NCBI GenBank assembly: GCA_963848295.1
Contig: CAWKDB010000010.1
Location: forward strand, 2,080,001-2,144,000
Reading direction: 5' to 3'
Source: an uncultured delta proteobacterium
GTDB taxonomy: Bacteria; Myxococcota_A; Polyangia; Haliangiales; Haliangiaceae
DNA: 64,000 nucleotides
A program made the position numbers and the translations under genes. The stretch's first letter is position 1, and every line of letters begins with the position of its first letter. Under the pieces are notes generated by a model, which saw only the letters and a program-made list of their open reading frames with translations, was not told the DNA's origin and made no database searches. Of this stretch, positions 737-42,057 are shown one piece after another.

Positions 737-2007
737 GACATCTCCGCGAGGTCGACGACATCGCCGCGGACGTAGCCGAGCAAGCGATCGAACGCGCCGA
801 GCATGCTCGCGCTCGGTGGCTCGACGTGACTGCGCGTCCAGATCCGGGTGAATACTTCGCGCGGATCGAGCTCGGCGAGCTTCTGGACCGCGATCCGGTC
901 AGCGAGCGCGGCGCCATCGCCGGTGACCTCGACGCCGAGCCTGACGAGGCGCGCGTGCTTGCGGTCGAGCGCCGCTTCGATCGCGGTACGCAGGCGCGGC
1001 TCCGGCCGATCGAGCGCGACCACGATCTCCAGGTACGGTCGCGGCCCCTCGCTCGCAGCCGGCAGCGCTGCGATCTCGGCGAGCACCTCGGCGAGCGGCG
1101 CGGCGCCGCGCTTCGGGATCCGCGCGATCCCGACCGTCTGCGGGACCGCGACCGAGCGCAGCTCCGCGACCTTGCCGTCGCCGTCGAAGTCGACCACGAC
1201 GACCTGATGTTTGTAGCTCGCCTCGTCGAGCGCGAGCGCGATCGGAGCCCCCGCGTAGCGCACGGTGTCGCGACCTACTCGCTGCGCGCGATGCATGTGG
1301 CCGAGCGCGACGTAGTCGATGTCCTTCGGGAACAACCGCACCGACGCGGCTTCGACCCCGCCGATCGACACCCGCCGTTCACTCGCCGAGATCTCCGCGC
1401 CCGCGACATAGAGATGGCCGAGCCCGATCACCGCCTGGCCCGGCCGGCGCCTCGCGCGTGCGGCCTCGAACACCTCGCCGTAGATCGCCGCGAGTGGATC
1501 GGGGCAATCCGCGGGCACATCGCTGGCCGGGGCCTGTGCCCGGCCAGCAGCACTGCCGAATGGCAGTGCGGGTAGATCGACGGGCCGTAAGAACGGCACC
1601 GCCGCGACCAAGCCGCGACCGGCCGCGACCGGCACGAGGATGCGGTCGAGATCGAGCGCGCCGCCCGCCCCGCGCGGCAGCCCGCCGATGACGTGAACGC
1701 CGAGCTCGCGCAGCACCGCCGAGGCCGCGCCGAGCCGCGCCGGCGAATCGTGATTGCCCGCGATCGCAACGATGTCGACCGCCGGCAACGTGCGGCGCGC
1801 CGACGCGAGAAAATCGAACCACATCCGCTCCGCACTCGCCGGCGGCGTGCCGCTATCGAACACGTCGCCGGTGATCACGACGACATCGGGCAGCTCGCGC
1901 GCGCAGGTCTCGAGCAACCACGCGAGAAACGCGGCGTGCTCGTGCTCGCGAGTGACGTCCTTGAGCGTGTGCCCGAGGTGCCAATCCGATGTGTGAAGGA
2001 GCCGCAT
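733..2007 (-). CDS. sbcD: SbcD/Mre11-type nuclease, with an in-frame 57-bp insertion
   Basis: MRLLHTSDWHLG, TGDVFD, AGNHDS, YVALGHMH metallophosphoesterase motifs; coupled to sbcC. Start moved to the ATG at 2007. Confidence 0.95.
   Translation of the reverse strand: MRLLHTSDWHLGHTLKDVTREHEHAAFLAWLLETCARELPDVVVITGDVFDSGTPPASAERMWFDFLASARRTLPAVDIVAIAGNHDSPARLGAASAVLRELGVHVIGGLPRGAGGALDLDRILVPVAAGRGLVAAVPFLRPVDLPALPFGSAAGRAQAPASDVPADCPDPLAAIYGEVFEAARARRRPGQAVIGLGHLYVAGAEISASERRVSIGGVEAASVRLFPKDIDYVALGHMHRAQRVGRDTVRYAGAPIALALDEASYKHQVVVVDFDGDGKVAELRSVAVPQTVGIARIPKRGAAPLAEVLAEIAALPAASEGPRPYLEIVVALDRPEPRLRTAIEAALDRKHARLVRLGVEVTGDGAALADRIAVQKLAELDPREVFTRIWTRSHVEPPSASMLGAFDRLLGYVRGDVVDLAEMS
1525..1581. 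repeat. 57-bp two-hairpin element, copy inside sbcD
   Basis: Ungapped match of 41/57 nt (manual count) to the unit at 18795-18851, with compensatory stem changes. Encodes VDLPALPFGSAAGRAQAPA. Confidence 0.85.
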
Positions 2008-2068
2008 CCGTGCGAAGACGTTCGCATCGCGGTCTGACACTGAACAGACGTAGCGGTAAGCTCGCCGG

Positions 2069-2767
2069 ATGACGACGGATCGTCGAGTCATCGTGTTCCG
2101 CACCCGGCTGCGCCCCGGCGCCGATCCCGACTACGGGCCACACGCCGAGCGAATGTGGCGGCTCGCCTCGAGCCTGCCCGGCTATGTGTCGGCGACCGAC
2201 TTCGTCGCCGGCGATGGCGAGCGCCTCGCGCTGATCGAATGGGACTCGCCGGGAAATCTCGCGATCTGGCGCGACCACGTCGATCACCTCGCCGCACAGA
2301 GCGACGGTCGCGCGAAGTACTACGCGCGCTACTCGCTACAAGTGTGCAGCGAGCTCAAGGTCTCGCGGTTCGACGCCGCTACCGGCGAGCACACCCAGAG
2401 CAATCGCGATCCCTCCGTGCTGCGCGGGATCGCCGAGCGCTGGCTGCGCGCGTTCGAACAGCGCGAGCTCGATGCGCTACTCGCGCTCTATGCCGACACC
2501 GCCACGCACACGTCGCCAAAGATCCGCGCGCGCCATCCCGAGACCGGCGGCCTCTTACGCGGCAAAGCCGCGATGCGCGCGTGGTGGCAAGACGCCTTCG
2601 ATCGTCTGCCGTCGATGCGCTACGAGCAACCGGTCATCACCGCGGACGACCGCCGCGCGTACATGGAATACGTCCGCAAGGTCGCGGGCGAGCCCGACCT
2701 GCCGGTCGCCGAGGTCCTCGACATCGAGGGCGGCAAGATCGTCGCGAGTCGCGTGTTCCATGGCTAG
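2069..2767 (+). CDS. ABM-like (antibiotic biosynthesis monooxygenase) domain fused to a SnoaL/NTF2-like domain
   Basis: N-half IVFRTRLRPG..Y...PGY...IEWDS...WRDHVDHLAAQ..GRAKYY..YSLQVC; C-half WLRAF..RELDALLALYADTATHTSP...GKAAMRAWW...KIVASRVFHG. Confidence 0.75.
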   Translation: MTTDRRVIVFRTRLRPGADPDYGPHAERMWRLASSLPGYVSATDFVAGDGERLALIEWDSPGNLAIWRDHVDHLAAQSDGRAKYYARYSLQVCSELKVSRFDAATGEHTQSNRDPSVLRGIAERWLRAFEQRELDALLALYADTATHTSPKIRARHPETGGLLRGKAAMRAWWQDAFDRLPSMRYEQPVITADDRRAYMEYVRKVAGEPDLPVAEVLDIEGGKIVASRVFHG

Positions 2768-2769
2768 CG

Positions 2770-3612
2770 CTACGGCAACAGCTCGACGACGTGCTCGGCG
2801 ACGCGCGCGGGGTCGGTGATGATCTCGACGTCGGCGATCCGGCCGCCGTCGAGGGCGATCCGCAGCAGCCGTTTCACGACGCCATGCGGCGCGAGCGCCA
2901 AGCCGGGCTCGCCATCGATCAGCACCGCGCACACCGCGCCGGCCATGCGCGAGAACTCGATCGCGCCCTTCGCCCACTGGATGGCACCGCGGATCTCGGG
3001 CGCGCCGGTGTCGATGCGCACGGTGACGTCCGGATCGAGCACGGCGACGAGGGCCTCGAAGTCGCGGCCGCGCATGGCGGCGAGAAACGCGTCGACGACA
3101 CCGCGCTGACGCGCGAGCTCGGCTTCAGGCACTGGCGGCCCACCTTGGACTCGGCGACGCGCGCGACTCGCGAGCTGGCGCGCCGCGACCGGACTGCGGC
3201 CGACGACCGCGGCGATCTCGTCGAACGCCATCCCGAACATGTCGTGCAGCACGAACGCGAGCCGCTCCGCCGGTTCGAGCTTCTCGAGCACGACGAGGAC
3301 GGCGAGGCTGACCGACTCGCCGAGTACGGCGGCCTGATCGGCGCCGGCTGCGATCGGCTCCGGCGCGCGATGATCGAGGCCCTCTTCTCGCCGGGCCTTG
3401 CGCGACCGCAGCATGTCGAGGCAAACGCGGGCCACGATCGTCGTCAGCCAGCCGCGCAGGTTCTCGACCTCGCTCGTCTCGGCGCGACTGGCGCGCAACC
3501 ACGCCTCCTGCGTCGCGTCGTCGGCGTCGGCGAGCGAGCCGAGCATGCGATACGCGACCGCACGCAGGTGGGCGCGGTGGAGCTCGAACGAATCGGTCAG
3601 CGTTTCGGTCAC
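2770..3612 (-). CDS. ECF sigma factor, ECF41/SigJ-like, with C-terminal SnoaL-like extension
   Basis: LRAVAYRMLGSLADADDATQEAWLR, WLTTIVARVCLDMLRSR, ERLAFVLHDMFG, RQLASRARRRV, VVDAFLAA...LVAVLDPDV. GTG start at 3612 with AAGGA upstream. Confidence 0.9.
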   Translation of the reverse strand: MTETLTDSFELHRAHLRAVAYRMLGSLADADDATQEAWLRASRAETSEVENLRGWLTTIVARVCLDMLRSRKARREEGLDHRAPEPIAAGADQAAVLGESVSLAVLVVLEKLEPAERLAFVLHDMFGMAFDEIAAVVGRSPVAARQLASRARRRVQGGPPVPEAELARQRGVVDAFLAAMRGRDFEALVAVLDPDVTVRIDTGAPEIRGAIQWAKGAIEFSRMAGAVCAVLIDGEPGLALAPHGVVKRLLRIALDGGRIADVEIITDPARVAEHVVELLP

Positions 3613-3647
3613 GGTGGCATCCTTTGCCCGGTAATCGTCAAAGCACT

Positions 3648-3674
3648 GACGAGCCAACCCCGGCACATGTGACC
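3648..3674 (-). promoter_or_regulatory. Putative ECF41-type promoter GGTCACA-N16-CGTC upstream of the sigma gene
   Basis: Minus strand reads GGTCACA-TGTGCCGGGGTTGGCT-CGTC; one mismatch to the ECF41 consensus TGTCACA-N16-CGTC. Confidence 0.65.
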
Positions 3675-3804
3675 GGGAAACGACTATTTCCACCCCGCCG
3701 CGGCGGGGTCGTAGAAGAAGTGGTTGCCGGTGACGACGGCGGTGATCAAGTCCTCGACGCGGGCTCGGGTCGGCATGACGGGAGCATACGTGTAGGATTC
3801 GCGC

Positions 3805-4605
3805 GTGGTCGACCTCGATCGTTACTTCCGCCGGATTGGCTATCACGGCGCGCACGAGCCGACGCTCGCGACGTTGCACGCGATCTGCGCCGCGCACGTC
3901 CTCACCATTCCGTTCGAGAACCTCGACGTCCTGCTCGACCGCGGCATCAGCCTCGATCCGGACGCGGTCGACGCGAAACTGATCGCGGGCGGGCGCGGGG
4001 GTTATTGTTTCGAGCACAATACGCTGCTGCTGCGCGTGCTCGAGACGCTCGGCTACGACGTCCAACCGATCAGCGCGCGCGTTCGCATCGGCCGGCCGCG
4101 CGACTACACGCCGGCGCGCACGCACGTGTTCCTGCGCGTCGAGCTCGCGGGCGAGAGCTGGCTCGCCGACGTCGGGGTCGGTGCGTTATCGCCGACGTGC
4201 GCGTTGCGGCTCGAGACTAGCGAGGAGCAGGCGACGCCGCACGAGCCGCGCCGGATCGTGCGCGAAGGCGCGTTGCTGTTCCATCAAGTGCGCTTCGCCG
4301 ACACCTGGAACGACATTTGCGAGTTCACGCTCGAGCACATGCCGCCGATCGATCGCGAGGTCGGCAACTGGTACACGAGCCAACATCCACAATCGCATTT
4401 TCGTAGCCGGCTCGTCGTCGCGCGCGGGCTGCCGGATGGCGGGCGCGCCTCGATCCTCAACCGCGAGCTCACGCTGCGCGGGCGCGATGGCATCGCCGAC
4501 ACGCGCGTGCTCGCGTCGCCGGCGGAGCTCCTCGACGTGCTCGCGGCGCGCTTCGATCTGCATTTTCCAGTCGGCACCGGGTTCAACTGCCCGGCGCTCT
4601 GGTAG
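3805..4605 (+). CDS. nat: Arylamine N-acetyltransferase
   Basis: IPFENLD, RGGYCFEHN (catalytic Cys), RTH, WLADVGVG (Cys-His-Asp triad). Confidence 0.93.
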   Translation: MVDLDRYFRRIGYHGAHEPTLATLHAICAAHVLTIPFENLDVLLDRGISLDPDAVDAKLIAGGRGGYCFEHNTLLLRVLETLGYDVQPISARVRIGRPRDYTPARTHVFLRVELAGESWLADVGVGALSPTCALRLETSEEQATPHEPRRIVREGALLFHQVRFADTWNDICEFTLEHMPPIDREVGNWYTSQHPQSHFRSRLVVARGLPDGGRASILNRELTLRGRDGIADTRVLASPAELLDVLAARFDLHFPVGTGFNCPALW

Positions 4606-4608
4606 CCG

Positions 4609-5385
4609 TCACGAGCTCGGCTCCTTCATCTGCACTTCGCGCAAGAACTGCTCCTCGGTCGCGCTCAGCGGTCGGCCCTTGAGCCGCTCGAGCTCGTCGC
4701 GCGACATGCCGCCGAGCTTTTGGCGATGCCGCGCCATCGCGACGTGCGCGCGGCCGATCGACGCGAGCACCTCGTCGAAGCTGGTGAAGCACACCGGCGT
4801 GCGCTCCGGATGCGCGCGCAGGTACTCGGTGATCCGCTTCTCGTGGCGCGCCATCACCTCGGCGATCGGCGCGTTGAGCGCGAGGCGCTCGATCTTCGCT
4901 TCGGGCGGCGGCTCGAGCCGATCGACGCCGTGGGTGTTGCTCGTGACCAGGAACTGGCCCTGGACCTCGGTCACGAGCTCGAGCACGCGCAGGTGACGCG
5001 GGAACAATTGCACGAGCTGGAGCAGCGACACGACGACGCCGCGCGGATGCAGATGATAGACGCTCGCCCGGATCATGCCGCCACCATCGATGAACATCCG
5101 CAGGAACGTGCGGTTGTGCGGATAGATCCGGCTGAGCGTGAGGTCTTCGACGTCGGCGAGCCAGCTGTACTTGCGGTCCTCGAGCTCGCGCCGCGCGCGA
5201 TCGTAGAACTCCAGATCGGCTTCGGGAAACGCCGCCGGGGTCACGCGCACGAGCTCGTGCGGCTCGCCGTAGACTGCATCGAGCCGCGCCCGCAACGCAC
5301 CGCCGCCGAGCCCGCGCGGTCGCCGTACGCCGAGAGCGACGGCGACGACGAGCCACAGGCCCATCATGAGGAAGAACACCTCCAC
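4609..5385 (-). CDS. Hypothetical protein with N-terminal membrane anchor
   Basis: GTG start VEVFFLMMGLWLVVAVALG; protein-like composition; no recognisable motif. Confidence 0.7.
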   Translation of the reverse strand: MEVFFLMMGLWLVVAVALGVRRPRGLGGGALRARLDAVYGEPHELVRVTPAAFPEADLEFYDRARRELEDRKYSWLADVEDLTLSRIYPHNRTFLRMFIDGGGMIRASVYHLHPRGVVVSLLQLVQLFPRHLRVLELVTEVQGQFLVTSNTHGVDRLEPPPEAKIERLALNAPIAEVMARHEKRITEYLRAHPERTPVCFTSFDEVLASIGRAHVAMARHRQKLGGMSRDELERLKGRPLSATEEQFLREVQMKEPSS

Positions 5386-5430
5386 GCAGCCATTGTGGCA
5401 CGGTCGCCGCGGCGCGGTACTGTCCCCGCC

Positions 5431-6396
5431 GTGATCACCTGGGATGACATCGTCGCCGCCCGCCAGCGGATCGCGCCGCACCTCCCTGTCACGGCGCTGC
5501 GCCACTACGCCCCGCTCGACGCCGAGGTCGGCGCCGGCATCCGCGTGCTCGTCAAGCACGAGAACCACCAGCCGACGAACGCGTTCAAGGCGCGCAACGC
5601 GGTGTCGTTCATGACCGCGCTCGATCCCGCGCAGCGCACGCGCGGCGTGGTCGCGGCGACGCGCGGCAATCACGGCGCCGGGCTCGCCTGGGCCGGCGCG
5701 GAGCTCGGCGTGCCGGTCGTGATCTGCGTGCCGCACGGCAACAATCCGGAGAAGAACACCGCGATGCGCGGCTACGGCGCCGAGTTGATCGAGGCCGGTC
5801 GCGATTACGACGAGGCGCTCGAGGTCGCAAAGCGCACCGCGATCGATCGCGGCATGGTGATGGGCCACTCGACGAACGACGCGCACGTGATCGCGGGCGC
5901 CGGCACGCTGTCGGCCGAGCTGTGCGAGCAGGCGCCGCAGCTCGATGCGATCGTCGTCGCGATCGGCGGCGGCTCGCAAGCGGTCGGCGCGATCGTCGCG
6001 ACTCGCGCGTTACGCCCGAACGTCAAGATCTACGGCGTGCAGTCGACCTCCGCGGCAGCCGCGCACGACTCCTGGCACGCCGGCGAGCGGCTCACGACCG
6101 CGACCGCCGACACGTTCGCCGATGGTCTCGCGACGCGCTCGACCTACGACATGACCTGGCAGCCGTTGCGCGAAGGGCTCGCCGGCTTCGTCGCGGTGTC
6201 CGAAGCGGCGATCGCCGAGGCGATCCGGATCTATCTGCGCACGACCCACAACCTCGCCGAGGGCGCGGGCGCCGCCGGCCTCGCGGGCCTCTGCGCCTTG
6301 CGCGACGAGCTCGCGGGCAAGACCGTCGCGGTCATCCTTTCGGGCTCGAACATCGACGCCGTGACGCTGCGCCGCGTGGTCACCGGCGAGCTGTAG
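5431..6396 (+). CDS. PLP-dependent threonine/serine dehydratase family protein
   Basis: KHENHQPTNAFKARNA (PLP Lys), TRGNHG, IGGGS, EGAGAA, LSGSN. Confidence 0.9.
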   Translation: MITWDDIVAARQRIAPHLPVTALRHYAPLDAEVGAGIRVLVKHENHQPTNAFKARNAVSFMTALDPAQRTRGVVAATRGNHGAGLAWAGAELGVPVVICVPHGNNPEKNTAMRGYGAELIEAGRDYDEALEVAKRTAIDRGMVMGHSTNDAHVIAGAGTLSAELCEQAPQLDAIVVAIGGGSQAVGAIVATRALRPNVKIYGVQSTSAAAAHDSWHAGERLTTATADTFADGLATRSTYDMTWQPLREGLAGFVAVSEAAIAEAIRIYLRTTHNLAEGAGAAGLAGLCALRDELAGKTVAVILSGSNIDAVTLRRVVTGEL

Positions 6397-6456
6397 CCTC
6401 ATTAGTACGTAGCTCCACCGAGTCATGGCGCACGGGATCTAGGGCACTATCCGGCG

Positions 6457-7344
6457 ATGTTGCGGATCGCCCTCATCGCCCTCCTGCTCGGCTCGACCAT
6501 CGCCGCAGCCGCTCCGAATCTCGCGAAGCCGGAGGTCAAGTTGCTCGATGCCGGCCACGGCCCGAAGCAAAAGCTCCGCGTGCGCGCGACTCGCGGCGCG
6601 GCTCAGACGCTCGTGATGGCGATGAAGATGTCGATGGCGATCGACGGCGTGATGTCGATCCCGGCGATGCAGCTGCCAGTCATCACGATGTCGATGCCGG
6701 CGAAGGTCACCGAGGTCACCAAGTCAGGCGACATCAAGTACGACATTTCGTTCTCGAAGGTCGATGTCGATGGCGCCGGCGCGGCTCCGGCGGTGGTCGC
6801 AGCCGTCAAGAAGTCGACCCAGGCGCTGGTCGGCACGAACGGTCACATCGGGGTGGATGCTCGCAACTTCACGACCGCCGCAGAGATCAACTTCTCGCCG
6901 AACATCGATCCGACGATGCGCCAGATGATGGACAGCATGATGCAGTCGTTCAGTCAGCTGTCGGCGCCGTTCCCCGACGAGGCGGTAGGGGTCGGGGCGA
7001 AGTGGCAGGTGATGTCGACCCTGCCCGCCGGGGGCGTGCTCTTGAAGCAAACCGCGACCTATACGATCACCGCGCTCGATGCCAACCGGATGATCGCGTC
7101 GGTCACGCTCGCGCAGAAGGCGGATCCACAAGCCTTCAGCAGCCCGACCATCCCCGCCGGTGTGAAGATGCGAGTCGTGACGTGGACCGGTACGGGTGGC
7201 GGCGACCTGACGTTCGAGTTCGCGAAGGTGCTCGCCACCCACGCGGCCCTCGACTTGTCATCGGTTGCGAAGATGACGATCGACGCGGGTGCCGGGCCTC
7301 AAGACATCAAGTACACGATCAAGGCGAAGATCGACCTCCGCTAA
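6457..7344 (+). CDS. Secreted hypothetical protein
   Basis: Signal peptide MLRIALIALLLGSTIAAAA; beta-rich body with FPDEAVGVGAKW. Confidence 0.75.
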   Translation: MLRIALIALLLGSTIAAAAPNLAKPEVKLLDAGHGPKQKLRVRATRGAAQTLVMAMKMSMAIDGVMSIPAMQLPVITMSMPAKVTEVTKSGDIKYDISFSKVDVDGAGAAPAVVAAVKKSTQALVGTNGHIGVDARNFTTAAEINFSPNIDPTMRQMMDSMMQSFSQLSAPFPDEAVGVGAKWQVMSTLPAGGVLLKQTATYTITALDANRMIASVTLAQKADPQAFSSPTIPAGVKMRVVTWTGTGGGDLTFEFAKVLATHAALDLSSVAKMTIDAGAGPQDIKYTIKAKIDLR

Positions 7345-7997: not shown

Positions 7998-8099
7998 GCC
8001 ATTGTACGAGCCCACCGGCGAGGCGCCACGCAAATCGGCCCTTGCACAAACCTTACACGGCGGCGGCAACTTCGGAGGCGGTCGCACGTCATGGTCGAG

Positions 8100-8939: not shown

Positions 8940-8992
8940 ACGCGAAGACGGCGCCGGCTTTCACCGACGCCGCGGCTCCGCGATGACCGTGC

Positions 8993-10970: not shown

Positions 10971-10993
10971 TGCCGGGTGATAACGTTGCCCCG

Positions 10994-14068: not shown

Positions 14069-14070
14069 CG

Positions 14071-16541: not shown

Positions 16542-16545
<4 letters not shown>
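15778..16545 (-). CDS. vWA (TerY-like) domain protein
   Basis: MIDAS-like DDSQSI, GTPLYD, IITDGGD; the ATG overlaps the nicotinamidase stop. Confidence 0.8.
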
Positions 16546-17603
<1,058 letters not shown>

Positions 17604-17617
17604 GAGATCTCCTTGGG

Positions 17618-19439
17618 TTAGTTGAGAGACAGGTGAAGGGCGTCGTGCTCGCGAATCACGTCGAGGCCGCCCGGCGCGAGCACGAGCCGATCGGCGGCGG
17701 ACACGAGCTGCGGCGGTCTCGGTGAACACGCGCGTGCAGGCGATCGCGCCGGCGACGAGCTCGATGCGAACGATGCCCGCGTCGGTCGGTACGAACAATT
17801 GGCTGCCACTCGCGCACGCGCCGGCGATGCCGGCGAGCCACGGCGTATCGGTCAGCAGCTCGGTCGCGAGCACGCGCGCGTCGCTGCCGATCACGACCGC
17901 GATCGTCGCGAGCTGGCCGTTGACCACGCGAGTCAACCACAGCCATGCGCGATCGCCGGCGATGGTCGCGTGCGCGGCGACGAGCTCGCCGTGAATCGCC
18001 GGCAGCGCGACGCGATCGTCGAGCCCGCCTCGCTCGGGGCGGAACACGAAGCCGACCGCGTAGCCCCCGGCGCGATAGAACCCGACGCCGAGCGCGGCGC
18101 CGACCCAGATCCGCGTTTGACCGGCGAGCACCGACCCGATCCGCTCTTCGCCGAGCCGCGTCTTGCGGAGCAACGCACCGCCGGACAACCGGATGCGCGA
18201 GTCCGCGGCCGGCGACGTCGTCGGGATGACGTGCCAGCGCAAGCCACCCGAGACCGAGACCGGTGGCGCCGGCGCGCGATGGCGGCAGGTCGGACACGTC
18301 TCGCGAGCGTGCTCGTCGCCGCACTCGCTGCATCGACGCATGCGTAGGCTCGCGAGCAATGCGCGCGGGAATTCTCCGCGGACGTCGCGCTCGAAGACGT
18401 CGCGGAACACGGCGAGGAGCGCATCGGGCAGGATCGCGAGCGGACGCGCGGCGCGCGGGTACACGACCTCGGCGTGCAACACGCTGATCCGTCGCAGGGC
18501 TCGCGCGGTCGCCGCGCAGCGCGGGTAGACACCGCCCCACGGACCGAGCCAGAGCAACGTGCGAAATGCCATCGCGGCGAACGCGAACCAGTCACTGTCG
18601 CGATCGTGCGGGCGCGATGGCACGAGCTGGCCGTCGCACAATCGCGGGTCGAGCAGGCGCTCGCTGAACATCGAGCACGGAAAGCCGGCGAGCTGATAGC
18701 TGTCGACGTCGATCAGGTGAACGCGTCGGGCGGCGAGGTTCGGGGCTCGCCCTCGAACGGCAGCGTCGCCGGATGGCGATGCGGTTAGATCGACGTTCGG
18801 GGCTCGCCCCCGAACGGCAGCGTCGCCGGATGGCGATGCGGTTAGATCGACCTTCGGGGCTCGCCCCCGAACGGCAGCGTCGCCGGATGGCGATGCGGTT
18901 AGATCGACCTTCGGGGCTCGCCCCCGAACGGCAGCGTCGCCGGATGGCGATGCGGTTAGATCGACGAGCACGTTGAGGTCGTTGCAATCGCCGATCACGA
19001 CGTCGGCGCGATGCAGGGCGGCGATCGCATCGTGGAGCGCGAGCAACGCCGCGATCAGCTCGCCGCCGTCGATCGGATGCTCGCGGCGCCAGCGCGGCTC
19101 GCCGTAGCTGAGCAGCGGAGTGCCGGTGACGCGCGGCATCGTGAAACCGACGACCTGGGTCGAGCGCTTGCCTGCGAGCGCGAGCCCATTGGGCGCGACG
19201 ATCGCGGGCGGCAGACCCGCCGGTAAGGCGCGCAGCTTGGCGGGGGCTTCGGCGAGCCGCCGCTCGGCCGCGGCTTGCGCCTCCGGTTGTCCGGCGAAGT
19301 CGGGGTGATCGGCGGGCTTCCACCACTTCACGACCCGGCCATCGCCGAGGTCGTAGACCTCTGCTTCGCCGCCTTGCCCGATCAGGGTCGCCGGCGCGAG
19401 GTCGAATCGCTCGCCGTCGATCCACACGACGCGATTCAT
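17618..19439 (-). CDS. Ser/Thr protein kinase-like protein with CxxC..CxxC zinc ribbon and beta-rich C-terminus; 4x57-bp insertion; apparent frameshift near 17712
   Basis: IGQGGEAEVY, VVK, VIGDCNDLNVL, LIDVDS, DWFAF, CSEC...CPTC; C-terminus QLVSAADRLVL...HLSLN lies in a second frame ending at 17618. Confidence 0.8.
18738..18965. repeat. Four tandem copies of the 57-bp two-hairpin element inside the kinase catalytic domain
   Basis: Units start at 18738, 18795, 18852 and 18909 and are nearly identical; they encode VDLTASPSGDAAVRGRAP(K/N). Confidence 0.95.
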
Positions 19440-22095: not shown

Positions 22096-22626
22096 CTAAC
22101 GGAGTGGGCGCATCGCGCGTGCCCGCCGCAGGTCGTTGACGACGCGCGCGATCGCATCATCGTGCAGCAGCAGCTTCGACATCGCGCCGGTCGTGATGCC
22201 GAGCCGGCGCGCGGTCGCGCCGATCTCGAGGTCGCCTGCGACGAGCAGATCGAGCAGCTCCGCGATCGCGAGCCAGTAGTCTGCGGTCAGCCGAGTCCGC
22301 GCGCCGAGCGGTGCGGTGCCGCCGGCGACGAGCGCGGCGAGCCGCGGCGATGCCACGTAGCCGTCGAGCTCACCCGCGATCGGCGCGCGCACCTCGAGCG
22401 CGATCGCGGCGCGCAGGCGGCGCACCGCGTAGATCTTGTTCTCGGCTTGCGACCGGCTGTCTTCGCCGATCGCCGATACGCCGGTCGGGAGATGACGCAG
22501 TCGTACCGCGCTCTCGGTCTTGTTTCGGTGCTGTCCGCCCGGCCCGGACGCGCGATAGCGATCGACCTCGCTCTGCGCGATCAATGCATCATCGGTCGCG
22601 ATCAGGGCTGCGTCGCGCGGGGTCAA
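22096..22626 (-). CDS. Peptide chain release factor-like (RF-1 domain) protein
   Basis: YRASGPGGQHRNKTESAVRLRHLPTG...RSQAENK (GGQ); TTG start overlaps the upstream stop. Confidence 0.85.
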   Translation of the reverse strand: MTPRDAALIATDDALIAQSEVDRYRASGPGGQHRNKTESAVRLRHLPTGVSAIGEDSRSQAENKIYAVRRLRAAIALEVRAPIAGELDGYVASPRLAALVAGGTAPLGARTRLTADYWLAIAELLDLLVAGDLEIGATARRLGITTGAMSKLLLHDDAIARVVNDLRRARAMRPLR

Positions 22627-23621
22627 TTCGCGTCGCTCGGCGCGGTCGCGGGGGTCGTCGGCTGCGTCACCGGCGCGCTCGGATCGAGATAGACATCGAC
22701 GCCGGCGCGCTCTCCGGCTCGACCGTATTCGACGCTCGCGATCCCGCCGCCGAGCGCACCGACCAGCTTGTCGAGCTTCGGATCGACCCCGACCTTCACA
22801 TCGCCGCACAGCGTGCGCGTCGCCTCGAACGACAGCCCCGGGACCAGCGCGCCGACCCGCACGATCTTGCCGCCGCGGATCCGCAGCGATAAGCCGAGCG
22901 CCGGGGTCGAAGAAACCGCACCGCCATCCGCCGGTGCTCCCGGTCCCGGGCGAGCCGCGACCGGCGATGCGCCGAGCAGATGCGCGACGAGTGGAGCCTC
23001 TAGCGGTGCGCCGGTGAACGAGGCGAAAGCCGCCGACAGCGCGGTGACTTGGGCGTCGACGGTCGCACCCGGCATCGCGAGCTCGATCTCGGAGTATGGC
23101 GCGTCGCCGATCGATTGCGTGAACCGCTCGATCCGCGACACGCCGTGTTCCTCGACCCACTTCTTGATCTGGTACTTCGCCTCGTGCGTCCCGAACATCG
23201 CCTCGACCTTCGGCCACTCGTGCGGATCGAAGAAGTGCCAGCCGGTCGTGACCTTGCCGCCCCACACGCCGATCCACGAGCCGACGAGCTTCGGCTCGAG
23301 CTGCTCGCCGATCTGATCGAGCAGGTGCGCGTCGGTCTTCGCGATGTTGCACAGCTTGAAGTAGTCGGCCATCCGCGGCACGAAGCCGCGCGGATCGCCC
23401 CACGAGCCCCACCAGACGCGGCGCAGATCGCTGCCGAGCATGGCGAGAAAGTTCACGCCTTCGCCGTCCGGCATATCCGGCGGCGTCGGGTTGTGCTCGA
23501 GCCAGCGGTCGAGATGGATATCCATCCACTCCTCGATGATCGGCAGCTGCGACAGGCTGATCTGGAGGTTCAACCGGACCGATAGCGCGCGCTGCAGAGC
23601 AGTCTCGAGCGAGCTGGCCAT
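22623..23621 (-). CDS. Hypothetical protein carrying an in-frame 57-bp element
   Basis: Long ORF with protein-like composition; low-complexity-looking insert SPVAARPGPGAPADGGAVSSTP. Confidence 0.75.
   Translation of the reverse strand: MASSLETALQRALSVRLNLQISLSQLPIIEEWMDIHLDRWLEHNPTPPDMPDGEGVNFLAMLGSDLRRVWWGSWGDPRGFVPRMADYFKLCNIAKTDAHLLDQIGEQLEPKLVGSWIGVWGGKVTTGWHFFDPHEWPKVEAMFGTHEAKYQIKKWVEEHGVSRIERFTQSIGDAPYSEIELAMPGATVDAQVTALSAAFASFTGAPLEAPLVAHLLGASPVAARPGPGAPADGGAVSSTPALGLSLRIRGGKIVRVGALVPGLSFEATRTLCGDVKVGVDPKLDKLVGALGGGIASVEYGRAGERAGVDVYLDPSAPVTQPTTPATAPSDAN
22906..22962. repeat. 57-bp two-hairpin element, copy in the opposite orientation
   Basis: GTCGAAGAAACCGCACCGCCATCCGCCGGTGCTCCCGGTCCCGGGCGAGCCGCGACC; 44/57 nt identical (manual count) to the reverse complement of the kinase unit. 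Confidence 0.85.
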
Positions 23622-32846: not shown

Positions 32847-32865
32847 TCCCCGGTAGGATGCCGGC

Positions 32866-33564: not shown

Positions 33565-33565
33565 C

Positions 33566-35829: not shown

Positions 35830-36335
35830 AGCTGCTCGAGGATCCTCAGCGTTAGCGTCCCGACGTTGTCGGCGTAGTCGCCGTCGTGGAGGTTCGCCGA
35901 CAGGGTCGAGTCGAGGCCGGTGAACGCGATCTCGTAGACGTGCGAGGTGGTGTACGCGCCCCAGCGCGTGACCTTGTCGCCGACCGTCGGGTGGTCGATC
36001 GAGATCCCGTAGTCGAGCCCGTTGAGGTCGTTGTTGTCGGCGGGATTCGTGAAGTCGTGATACTCGGCGTCGCCGAGTTGATCGCCGACGCCGCCGCAGG
36101 TGATCGTCCCGGACGCGTTGACTCGGTAGACGCCAGCGCTCGACAGCACCGAGGTCGACGTCACCGATGATCCATCGCTCGGCACGGCGATCGTCTCGAT
36201 CACGATGAAGCCGAGATCCGAGTCGAAACCCGGCGGCGGCGCGTCACTCGGGCCGGCAACCATCACGGGCCGAAAGTCGAGCCGCCCGCAAGCGCCTACC
36301 GCGACCGCGATCGCCACCGACCCGATGCTCCGCAT
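35826..36335 (-). CDS. Hypothetical lipoprotein
   Basis: Lipobox VGAC followed by GRLDF; Asp/Thr-rich beta body. Confidence 0.7.
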
Positions 36336-36407
36336 CCCCCCAGTCTAACCGGCTCGCAGCGCCGAAGTGAGTCTTCGGACCTTCACGATGACAGGCGCGA
36401 GCTCCCT

Positions 36408-36687
36408 GTGCGTGAAGCCAAGAAGATCGAAGCTCTCGGTGTCCACGTCCTTCGGGGTGTCGTTGTGATGCGGCCGGACAAACCTCACCAGCCGCGTCTT
36501 CGTTGGGATGGAGCTTCAGTCCGTATTTGCCGAATCGTTTCGGCAGTACGTCCATCACCCTGCGAGCGTCATCCTCCGACGAGAATACGAGGACAGCGTC
36601 GTCCGCGTACCGGATGAGAAACGCATAGCCTTGCAGCCTAGGCTTCACGTCCGTCTCGAACCACGTGTCGAGCACCTCGTGTAAATA
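36408..36687 (-). pseudogene. Group II intron reverse transcriptase fragment (YADD region)
   Basis: RYADD motif; frameshift near 36505; no N-terminal RT or maturase region. Confidence 0.85.
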
Positions 36688-36765
36688 GGTTGAAACGCTG
36701 CAAGGTTCGATCGAGAGGTTTCAGTTATCCATCCGTTCTCCTCTCCCAGGCTTCGCCTGGCGCAC
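36408..36765 (-). mobile_element. Internally deleted group II intron remnant (5' end plus RT fragment)
   Basis: 5' end GTGCGCCAGGCGAAGCCTGG (GUGYG) at 36765; after about 78 nt it joins RT sequence YLHEVLDTWF...LIRYADDAVL...FGKYGLKLHP/KTRLV...SFDLLGFTH. Confidence 0.85.
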
Positions 36766-36836
36766 ATGCCGCTCAGATAAGTGCGTTGACCTTGACCTCG
36801 ACATTCAGGTCAAGGTCAACGTTATCTGAGCGACAT
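36766..36836. repeat. 71-nt long hairpin downstream of the PadR gene (terminator or REP-like)
   Basis: CGCTCAGATAA[GTG]CGTTGACCTTGACCT, 8-nt loop, AGGTCAAGGTCAACGTTATCTGAGCG. Confidence 0.85.
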
Positions 36837-36841
36837 TGGTG

Positions 36842-37522
36842 CTAGTCCTCGTCGAGGTCGCCGCCGTCGCTTGCGAGCAAGCCGTACAGCTTGCGGCGAA
36901 GCTCGACGAGCAGCTTGCGAGCTTCGGCGATCTGCGCCGGTGTGCCCGCGCGCATGATCTGGCCGAGCGCAGCACCGAGGTGCATGAGCTCGGCGCGCGG
37001 ATCGTCGCCGGCTTCGGGCGTTTCGGGCCACGCGGTCTCGAGCTCGTCGCGATGCTTGCCGACGTAGGTCTTGCCGCGCTCGGTCAGCTTGAACACGCGA
37101 CCGGTGGCGCCCTGCTCGGCTTTGCCGGCGTCGTCGACCAAGCCCTCGTCTTCGAGCTGCTGCAGCGTCGGATAGACCGAGCCCGAGCTCGGACGCCACG
37201 TCCCACCGGTGCGCTGCGCCAGCTCCTGCATGATCTGGTAGCCGTTGAGCGGCTTGTCGGCGAGCACGAGCAAGATCGCACCGCGGACGTCGCCGCGACG
37301 TGCGCGATGACCGCGTCCGAACCACTGCGCCCACGGAGGTGCGCCCGGCGGTCCGCTACCAGGGCCCCAGCCGCCGGGGCCACCGAAACCGGGGCCGCCG
37401 AAACCGGGTGGAGGGCCGCCGCGATGGCGACCGTGTCGCCCGCGGGCCGCGGCCCAAAAGTTGTTGTTGTCTGCGTGCTCGTCGCGAGCAGCGCGGAGGA
37501 TCTCTCTGTCGAATCGTCTCAT
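36842..37522 (-). CDS. PadR-family transcriptional regulator
   Basis: RRGDVRGAILLVL...GYQIMQEL..R.GG.WRPS.GSVYPTLQQLEDEGLV. Confidence 0.92.
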   Translation of the reverse strand: MRRFDREILRAARDEHADNNNFWAAARGRHGRHRGGPPPGFGGPGFGGPGGWGPGSGPPGAPPWAQWFGRGHRARRGDVRGAILLVLADKPLNGYQIMQELAQRTGGTWRPSSGSVYPTLQQLEDEGLVDDAGKAEQGATGRVFKLTERGKTYVGKHRDELETAWPETPEAGDDPRAELMHLGAALGQIMRAGTPAQIAEARKLLVELRRKLYGLLASDGGDLDED

Positions 37523-37573
37523 GGTGTTGTTTTGGATTTCTCCTGAGCGTCATAGTGCCATCATCTCGCGACA

Positions 37574-37591
37574 TGTCAACGATATATCGTT
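37574..37591 (-). promoter_or_regulatory. Palindrome AACGATATATCGTT overlapping a TTGACA -35 box upstream of the PadR gene
   Basis: Perfect 14-bp palindrome at 37578-37591; minus-strand TTGACA at 37574-37579. Confidence 0.65.
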
Positions 37592-37633
37592 ATCTATCGC
37601 GTAATAGCGCGTAAGGACTCGGAACCGATCCCG

Positions 37634-38881
37634 CTACTTGATCTCGACGTGCCAGGCGCCGTGCGCGACGTCTTCGCGGACTTCGACTCGCGGGTCCTGG
37701 TCGCGGAACAACAGCACCGGCTTGCCGTCCTCGTCGATCTCGTTCGGCTCGCCCCACTTGTGCTTGAACAGCTCGAGCAGCGTGTCGCGCGCCTCGGGGT
37801 GTGCCTTCCAGCCGATCGCGAACGTGAGCTCGTGGACCTTGCCGCCGGCGATGCCGAGCGTGATCTTCGTGCTGAACCGGTCCCATTCGGTCGGTGGTAG
37901 CGACAACACGAGGTCCTTGCCGACCTGCGCCACGTCATCCTTGTAGATGTGCTTGACCTCGTCGACCGTCTTGCCGAGCACCGGCTCGCGCAGACCGTCG
38001 AGCGAGTCGGGTTGGTCACCGAACAGCTGCGACGCCGGCAGGTAGTTGTCGAACGCGAGGTCATGATCGTCGCCGAGCGCAGCGCGCAGCGTCGCTCGCC
38101 AACCGGTCTCCGGGTCCGGCCACACCATCACGGCCTTGCCGACCGGCTCGGTCGCGGGCGTGCCCGGACCCCACGCCTCGGTCACGATGTCTTCGATGTG
38201 CGGCGGTAAGTTGACGTAGATCGATCGCACCGTGCCGAGCTTGTCGTCGAACTGCACGAACGACCGGATGCCAGCGACGCCGGTCGGCACTCCGGCCGGC
38301 ACCGAGACCGGACCGGGCGCGGCGACCTTCGCGTCGGCGAGCTTCATGCCGATGCGCAGCTTCGAGAGCTCGCCCGGCGGCACGACGTGCGCGCCGAAGA
38401 ACTCCTTGCTGATCGCGTGGTGCGGCGTGAACTCGAGCGAGCAATTGCGCTCGAGGCAATCGAGCCGCGCGCGCCAGCCGGTGACATCGCTGGTCCAGGT
38501 CGTTTCGGGTTGGCCGAGCGCGTCGTGCGTCATCGACGGCTCGCCCCACGCCTTGGTCAACAGCTCGCGACTGTTCGGGCCCGTGATCGTCGCGACGATG
38601 CCAGACACCGCACCGCCGTCGACGTGGACCGCGAGCCGGACGTCGCGGACGTCGGAGTCGAGGACCATCTCGTCGCGCACGCCGGCGCGGTCGGTGTCGT
38701 GGAGCTGCGGCACGAGTCGCTTCGCTTCGGCGACGGTCATCCCGGGGTGAATCTTCGCGAGACCGCGCGGCGGCTCGATCGCGGGACCGAAAAACGCCGT
38801 CGTCGCCGCGGGCGCGGATTCGCACGCTCCGCACGCCGCACCGGCGATGGCGATCACGAACGCTGCAGCTCCGAGTCTCAC
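37634..38881 (-). CDS. Hypothetical exported protein or lipoprotein with internal repeats
   Basis: Signal with GAAC; repeated PP..L.K...GM..A.AK and WG.P motifs. Confidence 0.7.
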   Translation of the reverse strand: MRLGAAAFVIAIAGAACGACESAPAATTAFFGPAIEPPRGLAKIHPGMTVAEAKRLVPQLHDTDRAGVRDEMVLDSDVRDVRLAVHVDGGAVSGIVATITGPNSRELLTKAWGEPSMTHDALGQPETTWTSDVTGWRARLDCLERNCSLEFTPHHAISKEFFGAHVVPPGELSKLRIGMKLADAKVAAPGPVSVPAGVPTGVAGIRSFVQFDDKLGTVRSIYVNLPPHIEDIVTEAWGPGTPATEPVGKAVMVWPDPETGWRATLRAALGDDHDLAFDNYLPASQLFGDQPDSLDGLREPVLGKTVDEVKHIYKDDVAQVGKDLVLSLPPTEWDRFSTKITLGIAGGKVHELTFAIGWKAHPEARDTLLELFKHKWGEPNEIDEDGKPVLLFRDQDPRVEVREDVAHGAWHVEIK

Positions 38882-38911
38882 CCTCCCATTTCTGCACTGG
38901 CTCGGTTCGTT

Positions 38912-40336
38912 TCACAAGTGCGTGCGCACGACGTCGCCGACGATCGTCAGGGCACGACGCATCACGTCCTCGGCGAGGTACGCATAGGCAACGCGAAAAC
39001 CATGCAAGTGCGGCTTGCCAAGGAATGCCGCGCTGCGGTTCGAGACGTGGATGCCGCGCCGCGCGAGGTCGGCTTCGAGCCTGGCGAGCTCGATCGACCC
39101 CGGCAGCTCGAGCCACAGCGTCGGACCGCCACCCGGCCGCGTCCACCGCACACCGTCCGGCATCAGCTCGTCGAGCGCTTGCAAGCACGCGGCGTAGCGA
39201 CCGTCGAGCGCGCGCTGCAACGTCTGGAGGTGCGTGTCGTAGTAGCCGCGCTCGAGAAACTCGGCGACGACTGCCTCGGTCAGCCAAGCGTTGCCGAGCG
39301 TCGACAACCGCTTCATCGCGACGAGCGTCGGTACGAGCTTCGGCGCCGCGGCGACGAACCCGATCCGCAGCGACGGCAGCAGCTTCTTCGTGAACGAGTT
39401 GACGTAGAGCACGTCCTTGCCGCCGAGCATCCGCAACATCGGCCGATATTCGCCGTCCGACAGCATGTCGGAGCCCCAATCGTCCTCGAGGATCGCGACG
39501 CCATGGCGGCGACACAGGTCGAGCACGCCGTGCAGCTCGGCGCTCGTGTAGGAGTAGCCGGTCGGGTTTTGGAAGCTCGGGATCAAGTAGGCGAGCGCGG
39601 GCTTCTGCGCGAGCGCGCGATCCCAGGCGGCCAGATCGACGCCGCCGCCGAACGGATCGAGCGGCAGCCCGACGAGCTCGTGGCCCAGGCTGTGAAACAG
39701 CAACGACGCGTACGCATAGACCGGCGACTCGACCGCGATGCGCTTGTGCGCGAGCGAACGCGCGACGATGTCCAGCGACTGCTGTGACCCGGTCGTGATC
39801 ACGATCTCGTCAGCGGAGACGTCGAGACCGCGCCGCTCGAGCCGCGCCGCGATCGCTTCGCGCAAAGGGCGATAGCCCTGAGCTTCGTATTGCGCGGGCA
39901 TCCGCTCGCGCAGCACGGAGCGCGCGCACTCCGCGATCCGCTCGGTCGGCAGCAGGTCCGGATCGATGAACACCGTCGACAGCGCGATCATCCCATGCGG
40001 CGCGATCTCGGGCTGGCCGAGCGGCGGGGGTACGAGGATCGGGAGCGGCGGCGCGATGACCGTCGCCGGCGCGGCGATCCCACCGCGGGCGAGCACGAAC
40101 ACACCTTCGCGCGGGCGCGCCTCGAGCACCCCGCGTGCCACGAGCTCGTCGTAGGCGGCCTGGGCGGTGTTCTTCGATAACCCGAGCTGGCGCTCGAGCG
40201 CTCGCATCGGCGGCACTCGACTACCCGCCGGCAACGCGCCGCTCGCGACCTCGCGCAGCACGCTCGCGATGATATCGGCCGCGGTCGCACGCCGGCCCGG
40301 GGTCGTGACATGGAGGCCAATGTATGGAGCGCGCAT
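38912..40336 (-). CDS. MocR/GabR-family regulator (GntR HTH plus PLP aminotransferase domain)
   Basis: LPAGSRVPPMRAL...SKNTAQAAYDELVARG; TTGSQQSL, PSFQNPTG, ILEDD, SFTKK..PSLRIG. Confidence 0.92.
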   Translation of the reverse strand: MRAPYIGLHVTTPGRRATAADIIASVLREVASGALPAGSRVPPMRALERQLGLSKNTAQAAYDELVARGVLEARPREGVFVLARGGIAAPATVIAPPLPILVPPPLGQPEIAPHGMIALSTVFIDPDLLPTERIAECARSVLRERMPAQYEAQGYRPLREAIAARLERRGLDVSADEIVITTGSQQSLDIVARSLAHKRIAVESPVYAYASLLFHSLGHELVGLPLDPFGGGVDLAAWDRALAQKPALAYLIPSFQNPTGYSYTSAELHGVLDLCRRHGVAILEDDWGSDMLSDGEYRPMLRMLGGKDVLYVNSFTKKLLPSLRIGFVAAAPKLVPTLVAMKRLSTLGNAWLTEAVVAEFLERGYYDTHLQTLQRALDGRYAACLQALDELMPDGVRWTRPGGGPTLWLELPGSIELARLEADLARRGIHVSNRSAAFLGKPHLHGFRVAYAYLAEDVMRRALTIVGDVVRTHL

Positions 40337-40405
40337 CCGCCTGCTTCATAACGCCGTTGTGGCAGCGGTGCGAAGGGACAACGCCCCGGCGGCCGTAGGG
40401 ACAGC

Positions 40406-42004
40406 ATGTTACCCTCGACGTGCGCGATGACGACCGACGCGACCGCCGACTCGGCGCCGCCCGGGGAGTTGTTCTGCCCGGTGTGTGAAAAGACGTTTGC
40501 GTCGGGCGAACGCTGTCCGGACGACGGTTCGAAGCTATTTCGGCTCGCGATCGGCATCGATCCGCTGATCGGCCGCGAGCTCGACGGCAAGTTTACGATC
40601 CTCGAGAAGCTCGGCCAGGGCGGAATGGGCGCGGTCTATCGCGGCTCGCAGCACTCGGTCGGACGCGAGGTCGCGATCAAGGTCGTCAGCGGCAACGCGA
40701 TGAACGCCACCGATGCGATCAAGCGGTTCTCCCGCGAGGCCAGGCTCGCGAGCCGACTGTCGCACCCGAACGCGGTCGGAGTTCACGAGTTCGGCCAGAC
40801 CGATGACGGGATGTTTTACCTCGTCATGGAGCTGGTCAGCGGTCGCACGCTCGACCAGGTGTTCAAGGCCGAGGGCGTGCTCAAGCCGGAGCGCGTCGTC
40901 CGGATCGGCATGCAGGTGTGCGATGCGCTCGAAGGCGCGCATGGGTTGTCGATCGTGCACCGCGATCTCAAGCCGGCGAACATCATGTTGCTCGATCGCG
41001 GGCGCGATCTCGTCAAGGTGCTCGATTTCGGGCTCGCGAAGTCACTCGTCCACGACTCGAGGCTGACCACGATGACGAACGCCGGTGCGCTGCTCGGTAC
41101 CCCGGCGTTCATGCCGCCCGAGCTCGCGCGTGGCGAGCCGTGCGACGGCCGAGCCGATCTGTATTCGCTCGGCTGTGTGCTGTATCTGATCGGGTCTGGC
41201 CAGCTCCCGTTCGAGTCGACCTCGCCACACGAGCTGATCGCGATGCACGCCACCGACCCGGCCCCGCCGATGCCCGTCGTGCCGGCCGCGCTCGCGGCGG
41301 TGATTGGCAAGCTGCTCGCGAAGGAGCCGCGCGATCGTTACCAGAACGCGGTCGAGGTGCGCGAAGCACTCGAGGTGTCCGTCGTCAGCCGGATGACGCC
41401 GCAGCCGTGGGACGCCCAGTCGAGCCTCGCGCCGTCGTCGGCGCCGAGCAAGGCCGGGCTCGACCCGAGCAAGCGCGGGATCTCGACCCGAGCCGTGGGG
41501 ATGGACGACTCCGATGTCGTCGCCGCGAAGTCGTTGCCGGAGATCGACCGTGCGGTCGCGAGACGGCGCTGGCCTGTCATCGCGGTCGGCATCGCAGTGT
41601 TCGCGGGCATCGCGGTGGTTGCGATCACGCGACGCGGAGATCGCGGCGCGAGTCCCGACCAGCCGACGGCTCCCGCGGCCGTTCCGCCCGCGCCGGCCCC
41701 GCCTCCCGCTCCGACGCCAACGCCAGCTCCGACGCCAACGCCAGCTTCGACACCCGCATCGATCCCGAGCCCGCCGACCACCACGACGCCCGCTTCGATT
41801 CCAACGCCAACGCCGACCCCGACGCGGGCGCCGACCCCGAGGCCAGCGCCGACCCCGAGGCCAGTGTCGACCCCGCAGACCGTGCGGCACTATCCGCCGC
41901 GGCACCCGCCGAAGACGCCGACACCGACGCCGACGCCGACGCCGACCCCGAGCCCAGCGCCGACGGCCGGTTCTGGCTCCGGCAAGGTGACCACGCCGTT
42001 CTGA
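40406..42004 (+). CDS. Membrane Ser/Thr protein kinase with N-terminal zinc ribbon and Pro/Thr-rich tail
   Basis: CPVC...CPDDG; LGQGGMGAVY, VAIK, HRDLKPAN, DFG, GTPAFMPPE; one TM segment; start may be 40427. Confidence 0.93.
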   Translation: MLPSTCAMTTDATADSAPPGELFCPVCEKTFASGERCPDDGSKLFRLAIGIDPLIGRELDGKFTILEKLGQGGMGAVYRGSQHSVGREVAIKVVSGNAMNATDAIKRFSREARLASRLSHPNAVGVHEFGQTDDGMFYLVMELVSGRTLDQVFKAEGVLKPERVVRIGMQVCDALEGAHGLSIVHRDLKPANIMLLDRGRDLVKVLDFGLAKSLVHDSRLTTMTNAGALLGTPAFMPPELARGEPCDGRADLYSLGCVLYLIGSGQLPFESTSPHELIAMHATDPAPPMPVVPAALAAVIGKLLAKEPRDRYQNAVEVREALEVSVVSRMTPQPWDAQSSLAPSSAPSKAGLDPSKRGISTRAVGMDDSDVVAAKSLPEIDRAVARRRWPVIAVGIAVFAGIAVVAITRRGDRGASPDQPTAPAAVPPAPAPPPAPTPTPAPTPTPASTPASIPSPPTTTTPASIPTPTPTPTRAPTPRPAPTPRPVSTPQTVRHYPPRHPPKTPTPTPTPTPTPSPAPTAGSGSGKVTTPF

Positions 42005-42008
42005 ATTG

Positions 42009-42057
42009 GACCGCGCCGCCATTCGGCGCTGCTCGCCGCCTTGGGCGAGCTTGGACC
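42009..42057. repeat. Degenerate intergenic copy of the 57-bp element
   Basis: GACC-GCGCCGCC-ATTC-GGCGCTGC-TCGC-CGCCTTGG-GCGA-GCTTGGACC aligns ungapped with the 49-nt core; second stem decayed. Confidence 0.55.

Follow-up and report, generated by a model that had tools for sequence, protein, structure and literature searches.

The window analysed here is a stretch of 64,000 nucleotides (positions 2080001–2144000 of contig C10) from genome G000, a soil myxobacterium of the family Kofleriaceae that is recorded as an uncultured delta proteobacterium and whose assembly comprises 7.78 Mb in 11 contigs at 68% GC and is 85% complete. It contains a 57-nt unit with two hairpins that lies in frame within three unrelated genes, namely sbcD, a kinase-like gene and a gene for a hypothetical protein, and that is present once more as a decayed copy between genes (Table 1). 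An initial annotation, made from the letters of the window, had placed the unit at these four sites. A covariance model based on 43 diverse copies (alignment A1) finds it at each of them with 38.4–85.1 bits, and the next-best match in the window scores 18.6 bits. When the copies at 1525–1581 (−), 18738–18965 (−) and 22906–22962 (+) are all put in the GTCGAT orientation, they align without gaps. The identities to the kinase-gene unit given in the annotation, 41/57 for the sbcD copy and 44/57 for the copy at 22906, are exact, and the stem changes that it quoted are present in the sequence. The decayed copy is intergenic, as annotated, and sits in an 80-nt spacer between the genes called at 40427–42004 and 42085–44070. 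As a whole unit it missed the nhmmer threshold of E 1e-3, and it was detected as a solo 5' half.

Table 1. Copies of the 57-nt unit in the window and the genes that carry them
Feature	Position	Strand	Evidence and remarks
Single unit in sbcD	1519..1581	−	Covariance model 78.5 bits; unit position 1 = window 1581
Four tandem units (76 aa) in kinase-like gene	18732..18965	−	Covariance model 85.1, 80.1, 54.7, 39.1 bits
Single unit in hypothetical gene	22906..22968	+ (antisense to − strand gene)	Covariance model 66.5 bits
Decayed intergenic copy	42001..42063	+	Covariance model 38.4 bits, E 1e-7
Host gene sbcD (nuclease subunit)	733..2007	−	Pfam Metallophos 1.7e-15 (residues 1–240), SbcD_C 3e-10
Host gene, weak sub-threshold kinase similarity	17640..19439	−	Open reading frame and gene call
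Host gene, conserved hypothetical protein	22623..23573	−	Gene call; orthologues in 10/10 relatives searched

The host label SbcD holds, with both of its Pfam domains matched, and the insert of 19 residues, read as VDLPALPFGSAAGRAQAPA, falls within the Metallophos match. It is bordered by TCGA at 1577–1580 and by the variant GCGA at 1520–1523, and the net gain is 57 bp. The insert in the hypothetical protein is read as PVAARPGPGAPADGGAVSS, and no Pfam family matched this protein. The label "kinase" is weak: the protein of the array has no Pfam kinase match at E<=0.01, and its insert-free orthologue matches Pkinase with E 0.033 and 14 bits, under the cut-off of 31.7. The four units of this gene are located between its GDCNDLNVLV and LIDVDS motifs, and their coordinates in the table take in the flanking tetranucleotide at 18732–18737. 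Tandem Repeats Finder reports them at 18734–18966 with a period of 57, 4.1 copies and 97% matches, and the units differ from one another at 0–3 of 53 positions. The open frame of the kinase-like gene continues stop-free to 16542, and the 3' limit of the gene is therefore uncertain; the frame 16542–19439 (−) contains a second protein-like part starting MTTLPLPP, which is either a fusion or the second of two genes in one frame.

Comparison with related proteins reveals that the inserted peptides are not ancestral, a point on which the initial annotation depended. The 19 residues of SbcD are missing from all 12 aligned congeneric orthologues (genome G010 was omitted from this set and counts as one negative genome in the genus tallies below), the 76 residues of the kinase-like protein from 3/3, and the 19 residues of the hypothetical protein from 5/5. 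At the nucleotide level, the empty sbcD site of the relatives reads CCG GTC GAC GTG or similar, with one RTCGAY, and the empty site of the kinase-like gene is GTCGAC or GTCGAT. For four further genomes, the match coordinates give the same gaps at the inserts of the window wherever the match is contiguous. A soil contig (run X4) that is ~88% identical to the window joins 1518 to 1576 and so skips 57 nt; other soil contigs over window positions 1000–3000 were fragments only.

The closest genome found, G117, has an SbcD that is 93% identical to that of G000, a hypothetical protein that is 96% identical and a kinase-like protein that is 90–91% identical. It shows exact 57-nt gaps at the sites in sbcD and in the hypothetical gene, with a single TCGA at the latter, and it carries one unit at the site of the four units of G000 in the kinase-like gene. 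The reverse case was also found, with copies in G015, G011 and G002 at sites that are empty in G000; for the G002 copy, G000 has an exact 57-nt gap over CTCGAC, with a single TCGA. One filled site is common to G019 and G000. Of the 37 G117 matches listed, 35 were compared with G000, the kinase copy and one copy at a contig end being omitted, and 29 of these mapped colinearly with flanks that are 82–97% identical. Fifteen of the 29 correspond to exact 57-nt gaps in G000, seven are filled there (in five the flanks are 63 nt apart, in one 66 nt, and one is a four-unit array), and in the remaining seven the length is a different one, between −3 and 48 nt. Insertion is thus polymorphic among relatives, the empty sites are exactly 57 nt shorter, and this pair of genomes, with flanks ~90% identical, differs at more than half of the loci mapped. 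In one gene, copies at G000:C10:2877256 and at locus L055 of G006 are independent and lie ~150–250 nt apart by BLAST coordinates.

The column profile and the 43-copy alignment give the unit the layout [TCGA] TCNAACC – hairpin A – TGC – hairpin B – [TCGA]. Position 1 is biased towards R, positions 2–5 are TCGA, 6–12 are TCNAACC, 33–35 are TGC and 59–62 are again TCGA. Stem A pairs 13–20 with 25–32 (8 bp) around a 4-nt loop, [A/C]T[T/C/G]C, and stem B pairs 36–44 with 50–58 (9 bp) around a 5-nt loop, with 36–58 as its closing pair. The element has an end made of TCGATCNAACC and hairpin A, and another made of hairpin B and TCGA. RNAalifold independently recovers both stems, and the two hairpins also form when the window copies are folded as single-strand DNA, whichever strand is taken (z-scores between −5.2 and −1.0). 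The consensus is open in all six frames, and its predicted products are rich in Gly, Ala, Pro and Arg. A search of Rfam 15 with the array region gave no family at gathering score, the sole match being to radC RNA (18 bits against a required 40, E 0.23).

Both stems covary, as the initial annotation had suggested from the few copies in the window, and they do so beyond two kinds of control. Among the 43 diverse copies, 89.7% of 731 cells are standard pairs, compared with 80.2 ± 0.6% after shuffling (0/500 shuffles reached the observed value). Cells in which both partners have changed number 69 against 20.2 in shuffles (0/500), with changes on both sides in 10/17 pairs, and the covariation score is 0.286 against 0.128 (0/500). 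When the 3' partner was slid by 1–3 columns, pairing came to 30–66%. A rival account is that the copies are dead insertions whose stems covary with no structural selection, because quasi-palindrome template switching corrects the arms or because a few subfamilies were inherited. Subfamilies are indeed visible, for example GGCCGGGCGCAGGTCCCGGCC versus GGCCGGGGGCAAGCCCCGGCC, and a single event inherited by many copies would be counted repeatedly. However, double changes occur in ten different pairs, with several pair types each, pairing stands at its high level despite a mean difference of 15.5 of 53 positions between copies at different loci, and the slid controls drop although they retain the relatedness of the copies. 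We consider this account improbable, and the structure is presumably maintained by selection rather than by palindrome-templated repair.

The boundary of the element can be placed by the same covariation. Position 58 tracks position 36 (C–G in 74 loci and T–A in 21; odds ratio 65, p 8e-13), and position 1 equals position 58 in 56/115 loci, where 48 would be expected by chance. Because 58 follows 36 while the agreement between 1 and 58 is near chance, only TCGA is repeated and position 58 is part of the element. The complement of the GTCGAT..AACC strand folds better at 87/108 loci with DNA parameters and at 68/108 with RNA parameters, whatever the direction of the host gene. Mismatches on the GTCGAT..AACC strand are A·C in 103 cases and G·T in 64, an A·C on this strand being a G·T on the complement. 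The asymmetry in folding and in mismatches is a hint, not proof, that one DNA strand matters.

The family extends well beyond the window. An nhmmer search of the whole genome, started from a profile of five window units and iterated at E<=1e-3, returned 105 copies, then 152, 158 and finally 159, where it converged; with such numbers recovered, the occurrence is far above chance. The 159 copies form 136 loci, of which 126 are single units and 10 are arrays of 2–5 units, and 120 of the copies are exactly 57 nt long. They are found on three contigs (99 on C10, 37 on C2 and 23 on C11), and the other eight have none. These are C1, C4, C9 and five small contigs; C4 (334 kb) would be expected to hold ~7 copies at the density of the other three, and C1 has a lower GC content of 64%. 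The element-free contigs may be plasmids or mis-binned contigs. A genus-wide search with the model, read on a scale of presence and absence and not of copy number, found the family in 13/24 genomes and then in 47/90. In the 16 other genera of the family, 4/47 genomes gave one weak match apiece, and further out 1/16 genomes did so. Plasmids yielded no blastn match to the element. In viral contigs, one pattern match was examined and rejected as a copy, as it has no TCGA and its arms are unpaired.

Within most arrays the units differ at only 0–3 positions, which indicates that arrays grow locally, by expansion from a single unit. Two other tandem repeats are present in the window: a 30-bp unit repeated 5.1 times at 55085–55238 (91% matches), and an 18-bp unit repeated 9.2 times at 41711–41875, towards the 3' end of the called gene 40427–42004.

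All genic and intergenic counts are based on our own codon-score gene caller. Called genes contain 95 of the 136 loci (70%); a further 11 straddle a gene end, and 30 fall between genes. Random positions (n=400) fall inside genes in 79% of cases, on a gene end in 11% and between genes in 9.5%, so that loci are mildly under-represented in genes (p 0.01) and 2.3 times as frequent as expected between them (p 1e-5). At 86 of the 95 genic loci the aligned length is divisible by three. Across all 95, TCGA falls in phase xTC GAx 74 times, in TCG Axx 19 times and in xxT CGA twice; its split in 1.14 Mb of confident coding sequence (79.9%, 19.0% and 1.2%) predicts 75.9, 18.0 and 1.1 (chi-square p 0.66). 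The reading frames of the inserts thus mirror the phases that TCGA has in coding DNA at large, and the choice of frame is set by the target and not by the peptide. The element points in the same direction as its host gene in 63 cases and in the opposite direction in 32 (p 0.002); this excess might reflect selection acting on the peptide that is encoded.

Two further rivals can be weighed against these counts. In one, the 19-residue peptide would be a protein module selected for its function in the hosts, which the tandem 19-residue repeats of the kinase-like protein do resemble. Such a reading is scarcely credible, since inserts occur in all six frames and do so as often as TCGA offers each of them, intergenic copies exist, and it is base pairs that are conserved, not codons. 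In the other, the unit would be a signal that serves the host, such as an mRNA stabiliser, a terminator or a site for gyrase or IHF. Roles of this type are known for repetitive extragenic palindromic (REP) sequences, according to PMC3733652, and the excess of intergenic loci (30/136) would fit them. The loci inside genes nevertheless make up 70% of the set and occur in both orientations, the family is patchy in the genus, more than half of the loci mapped between G000 and G117 differ although the flanks are ~90% identical, and no T-run follows the hairpins. A host signal is very unlikely on these grounds.

Forty genic loci drawn at random gave 37 open reading frames, of which 30 were scanned, and Pfam families at E<=1e-5 were present in 23 of these 30. 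Inserts were found inside matches to Metallophos_2, PhzC-PhzF, Acyl-CoA_dh_1 and CheW. The Era GTPase has one copy inside its GTPase domain, and an Lhr-type helicase has three separate inserts, one of them inside the DEAD domain; the Lhr and Era loci are at G000:C2:116226–120704 and C2:109536–110540. Hosts of DNA-repair type include sbcD, Lhr and a SNF2 helicase.

Both ends of the insertion could be aligned at 108 loci, and there the tetranucleotides on the two sides were compared. TCGA stands on the left in 76 of these loci and on the right in 58; both sides carry the same tetranucleotide in 48, compared with 42.8 expected if they were independent. Among the 64 loci with at least one side that is not TCGA, left equals right in just 4. 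The 15 empty sites of G000 that correspond to G117 copies contain TCGA in 7 cases, TCGN in 10 and TGGA in 3, the last being a synonymous third-position difference (CTC/GTC versus CTG/GTG), and they give mixed signals as to which side of the insert holds the original target. Such empty sites are compatible with duplication of TCGA, with duplication of CG, or with none, in which case the element would bring its own copy beside a target TCGA.

These ends bear on whether the element is a classical miniature inverted-repeat transposable element (MITE), for which a DDE transposase would cut TCGA in a staggered manner and thereby duplicate 2–4 bp of target. TA and CTAG are targets of known insertion sequence (IS) families, and the palindromic target TCGA is reminiscent of them. 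The direct TCGA repeats at both ends and the net gain of exactly 57 bp would also agree with a MITE. Against it, there are no terminal inverted repeats past TCGA(Y), where the criterion is 15–30 bp, the left and right tetranucleotides vary independently, and a search of the genome for something longer with these ends came up empty. We give little credence to a MITE of this kind.

The 57-nt family is a real and recently mobile element with a clear insertion rule, and it resembles REPs and the Rickettsia palindromic elements (RPEs). It is probably a non-autonomous mobile DNA element that adds exactly 57 bp at TCGA and whose two hairpins persist by way of compensating changes; each unit is predicted to add 19 residues to a protein whose gene it enters. 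The initial annotation had likewise proposed a non-autonomous structured element, which further copies, covariation and orthologues without the inserts bear out; its suggestions of selection on structure and of a HUH enzyme keep their conditional form here. The element probably moves in the form of a folded single strand, with the help of an enzyme whose gene lies elsewhere, and the hairpins would be the feature that this enzyme recognises. A length divisible by three, six open frames and products rich in Gly, Ala, Pro and Arg may allow copies to survive in genes as surface loops.

Several observations weigh against this interpretation. As a group, the copies are not young: between a copy and its closest counterpart at a different locus, the median difference is ~7/53 positions (minimum 1), and not one pair of loci has identical copies. 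The shuffle control overstates significance because the copies are related, and templated repair of quasi-palindromes could yield compensating changes with no selection. The gene caller is our own, some of its short calls may be false, and at 9 loci scored as inside genes the aligned length is not divisible by three. No mobilising enzyme was found for the element. The annotation had pointed to a Y1/RAYT transposase flanked by the element as something to look for, and none of the nine Y1 genes (PF01797 matches) of G000 is so flanked; the nearest copies are 2.0 and 5.2 kb away, and the covariance model reaches 19.1 bits at most over eight Y1 loci. All 31 genomes of the genus that were searched hold several members of the Y1 family, irrespective of the presence of the element. 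The four other element-rich genomes have only 39–46% identical homologues of the Y1 subfamily of G000, and the G117 homologue is 55% identical, with additional fragments at 78%. No orientation bias by replichore was found, the two arms of C10 having 29+/29− and 20+/21−. Hidden Markov models of the half-elements found solo halves only and no pair of half A and half B bracketing 0.1–15 kb in this 85% complete assembly.

The Y1 proteins themselves are ~245 residues long and score 36.7 bits with the NCBIfam model REP_Tyr_transpos (RAYT; cut-off 80), as against 20.2 bits with the IS200 model. RAYT was tried as the mover, and no link emerged from the genome search, the distances, the model scan of the Y1 loci or the comparison across the genus and the element-rich genomes. 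The Y1 loci have features of their own. At loci L002–L008 each Y1 start codon is preceded, at a distance of ~70–300 nt, by a conserved non-coding leader; the leaders of L005 and L008 are 93.5% identical over 154 nt, whereas the proteins are only ~45% identical. The leader contains a perfect 14-bp palindrome around ATCGAT as well as a long-range stem. In addition, a stretch of 53 nt is 98% identical at two unrelated Y1 loci (L004 849–901, in gene orientation, and L008 187–239), and it looks like another small dispersed repeat.

A single-strand route of HUH type is tentatively favoured because the element has no inverted terminal repeats, two sub-terminal hairpins, a fixed tetranucleotide and a strand asymmetry. 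That the mobilising enzyme is a HUH/Y1 nuclease of the RAYT-like kind is a tentative proposal, with the odds against it. A broader reading joins these points. The element would be a currently active single-strand "peel-and-paste" element adapted to coding DNA, with 19 codons and six open frames; it would aim at TCGA, which in a GC-rich genome is the most frequent Val/Ile/Leu-Asp codon junction, RAYT-like Y1 nucleases would move it in trans, and it could excise seamlessly. All of this together is unlikely to hold. If it were true, the element would be a natural engine for the gain, multiplication and loss of peptide loops across hundreds of proteins.

RPEs are ~100–150 bp long and reside in reduced intracellular genomes. 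The 57-nt element differs from them in having two unlike hairpins, a defined TCGA site, arrays of up to 5 units within open reading frames, and hosts that are soil myxobacteria with genomes of 7–12 Mb; the comparison is by description only. According to PMC10969869, RPEs are in-frame inserts in many Rickettsia genes. As described there and in PMC3733652, RPE-1 to RPE-10 share with the 57-nt unit that they form hairpins, lie in frame in unrelated genes, add a peptide segment and have a mobilisation that is unexplained.

As described by Di Nocera et al. 2013 (PMC3733652), GTAG- and CGTC-tagged REPs have stems of 8–9 bp and loops of 4–5 nt, REPs also lie within genes, frequently those for repair, in a number of free-living species, and CGTC REPs have no adjoining transposase gene. 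The 57-nt element is like these REPs in its 8–9-bp stems, its 4–5-nt loops and its repair-gene hosts, and like the CGTC REPs in the presence in the genome of Y1 genes, none of which adjoins it. In REP/REPIN repeats, GTAG marks one end of a palindrome of 20–40 bp; the 57-nt element has no GTAG and shows TCGA at both ends. It does contain CGTC at 57–60, where C57 and G58 pair with 37 and 36; the tag of CGTC REPs would be terminal and unpaired. The first two pairs of CGTC REPs are A–T, whereas 13–32 and 14–31 are G–C and C–G in 43/43 copies, and 36–58 and 37–57 are mostly C–G and G–C. Moreover, REPs are single units or head-to-head dimers and mostly intergenic, and the 57-nt unit is a head-to-tail pair of different hairpins and mostly genic. 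With REPIN/RAYT systems it has in common that short structured repeats exist in many copies in a genome that encodes RAYT-like Y1 proteins; it differs in that no Y1 gene is flanked by the element, Y1 is multi-copy, and the hairpins are not an inverted doublet.

Derivatives of IS200/IS605 are palindrome-associated transposable elements. Like them, the 57-nt element has a hairpin near each end, no inverted terminal repeats and an adjoining fixed tetranucleotide. It differs from them in its two unlike hairpins, in the lack of a replication-strand bias and in that no parent IS was found. Elements of the IS608 type, by contrast, are biased in orientation with respect to the replication fork, as stated in PMC6006769.

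No description of the 57-nt family came up in literature searches for one in myxobacteria or Kofleriaceae, and the supplementary tables of PMC3733652 could list relatives. The kind of element is already known, in the form of RPEs and intragenic REPs, and it is the 57-nt family itself for which no description was found. To our knowledge, how in-frame palindromic elements such as RPEs transpose was never settled, and informative comparisons in Rickettsia are few. The family described here has a simple testable insertion rule, a gain of 57 bp at TCGA, and dozens of sequenced relatives. It shows that a large free-living genome tolerates inserts in conserved domains, among them those of SbcD, Era, Lhr and CheW, which has a bearing on how proteins gain loops. 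Because dozens of relatives are available and more than half of the mapped loci are polymorphic at ~90% identity, insertion, loss and array growth can be dated and polarised in this RPE- and REP-like family.

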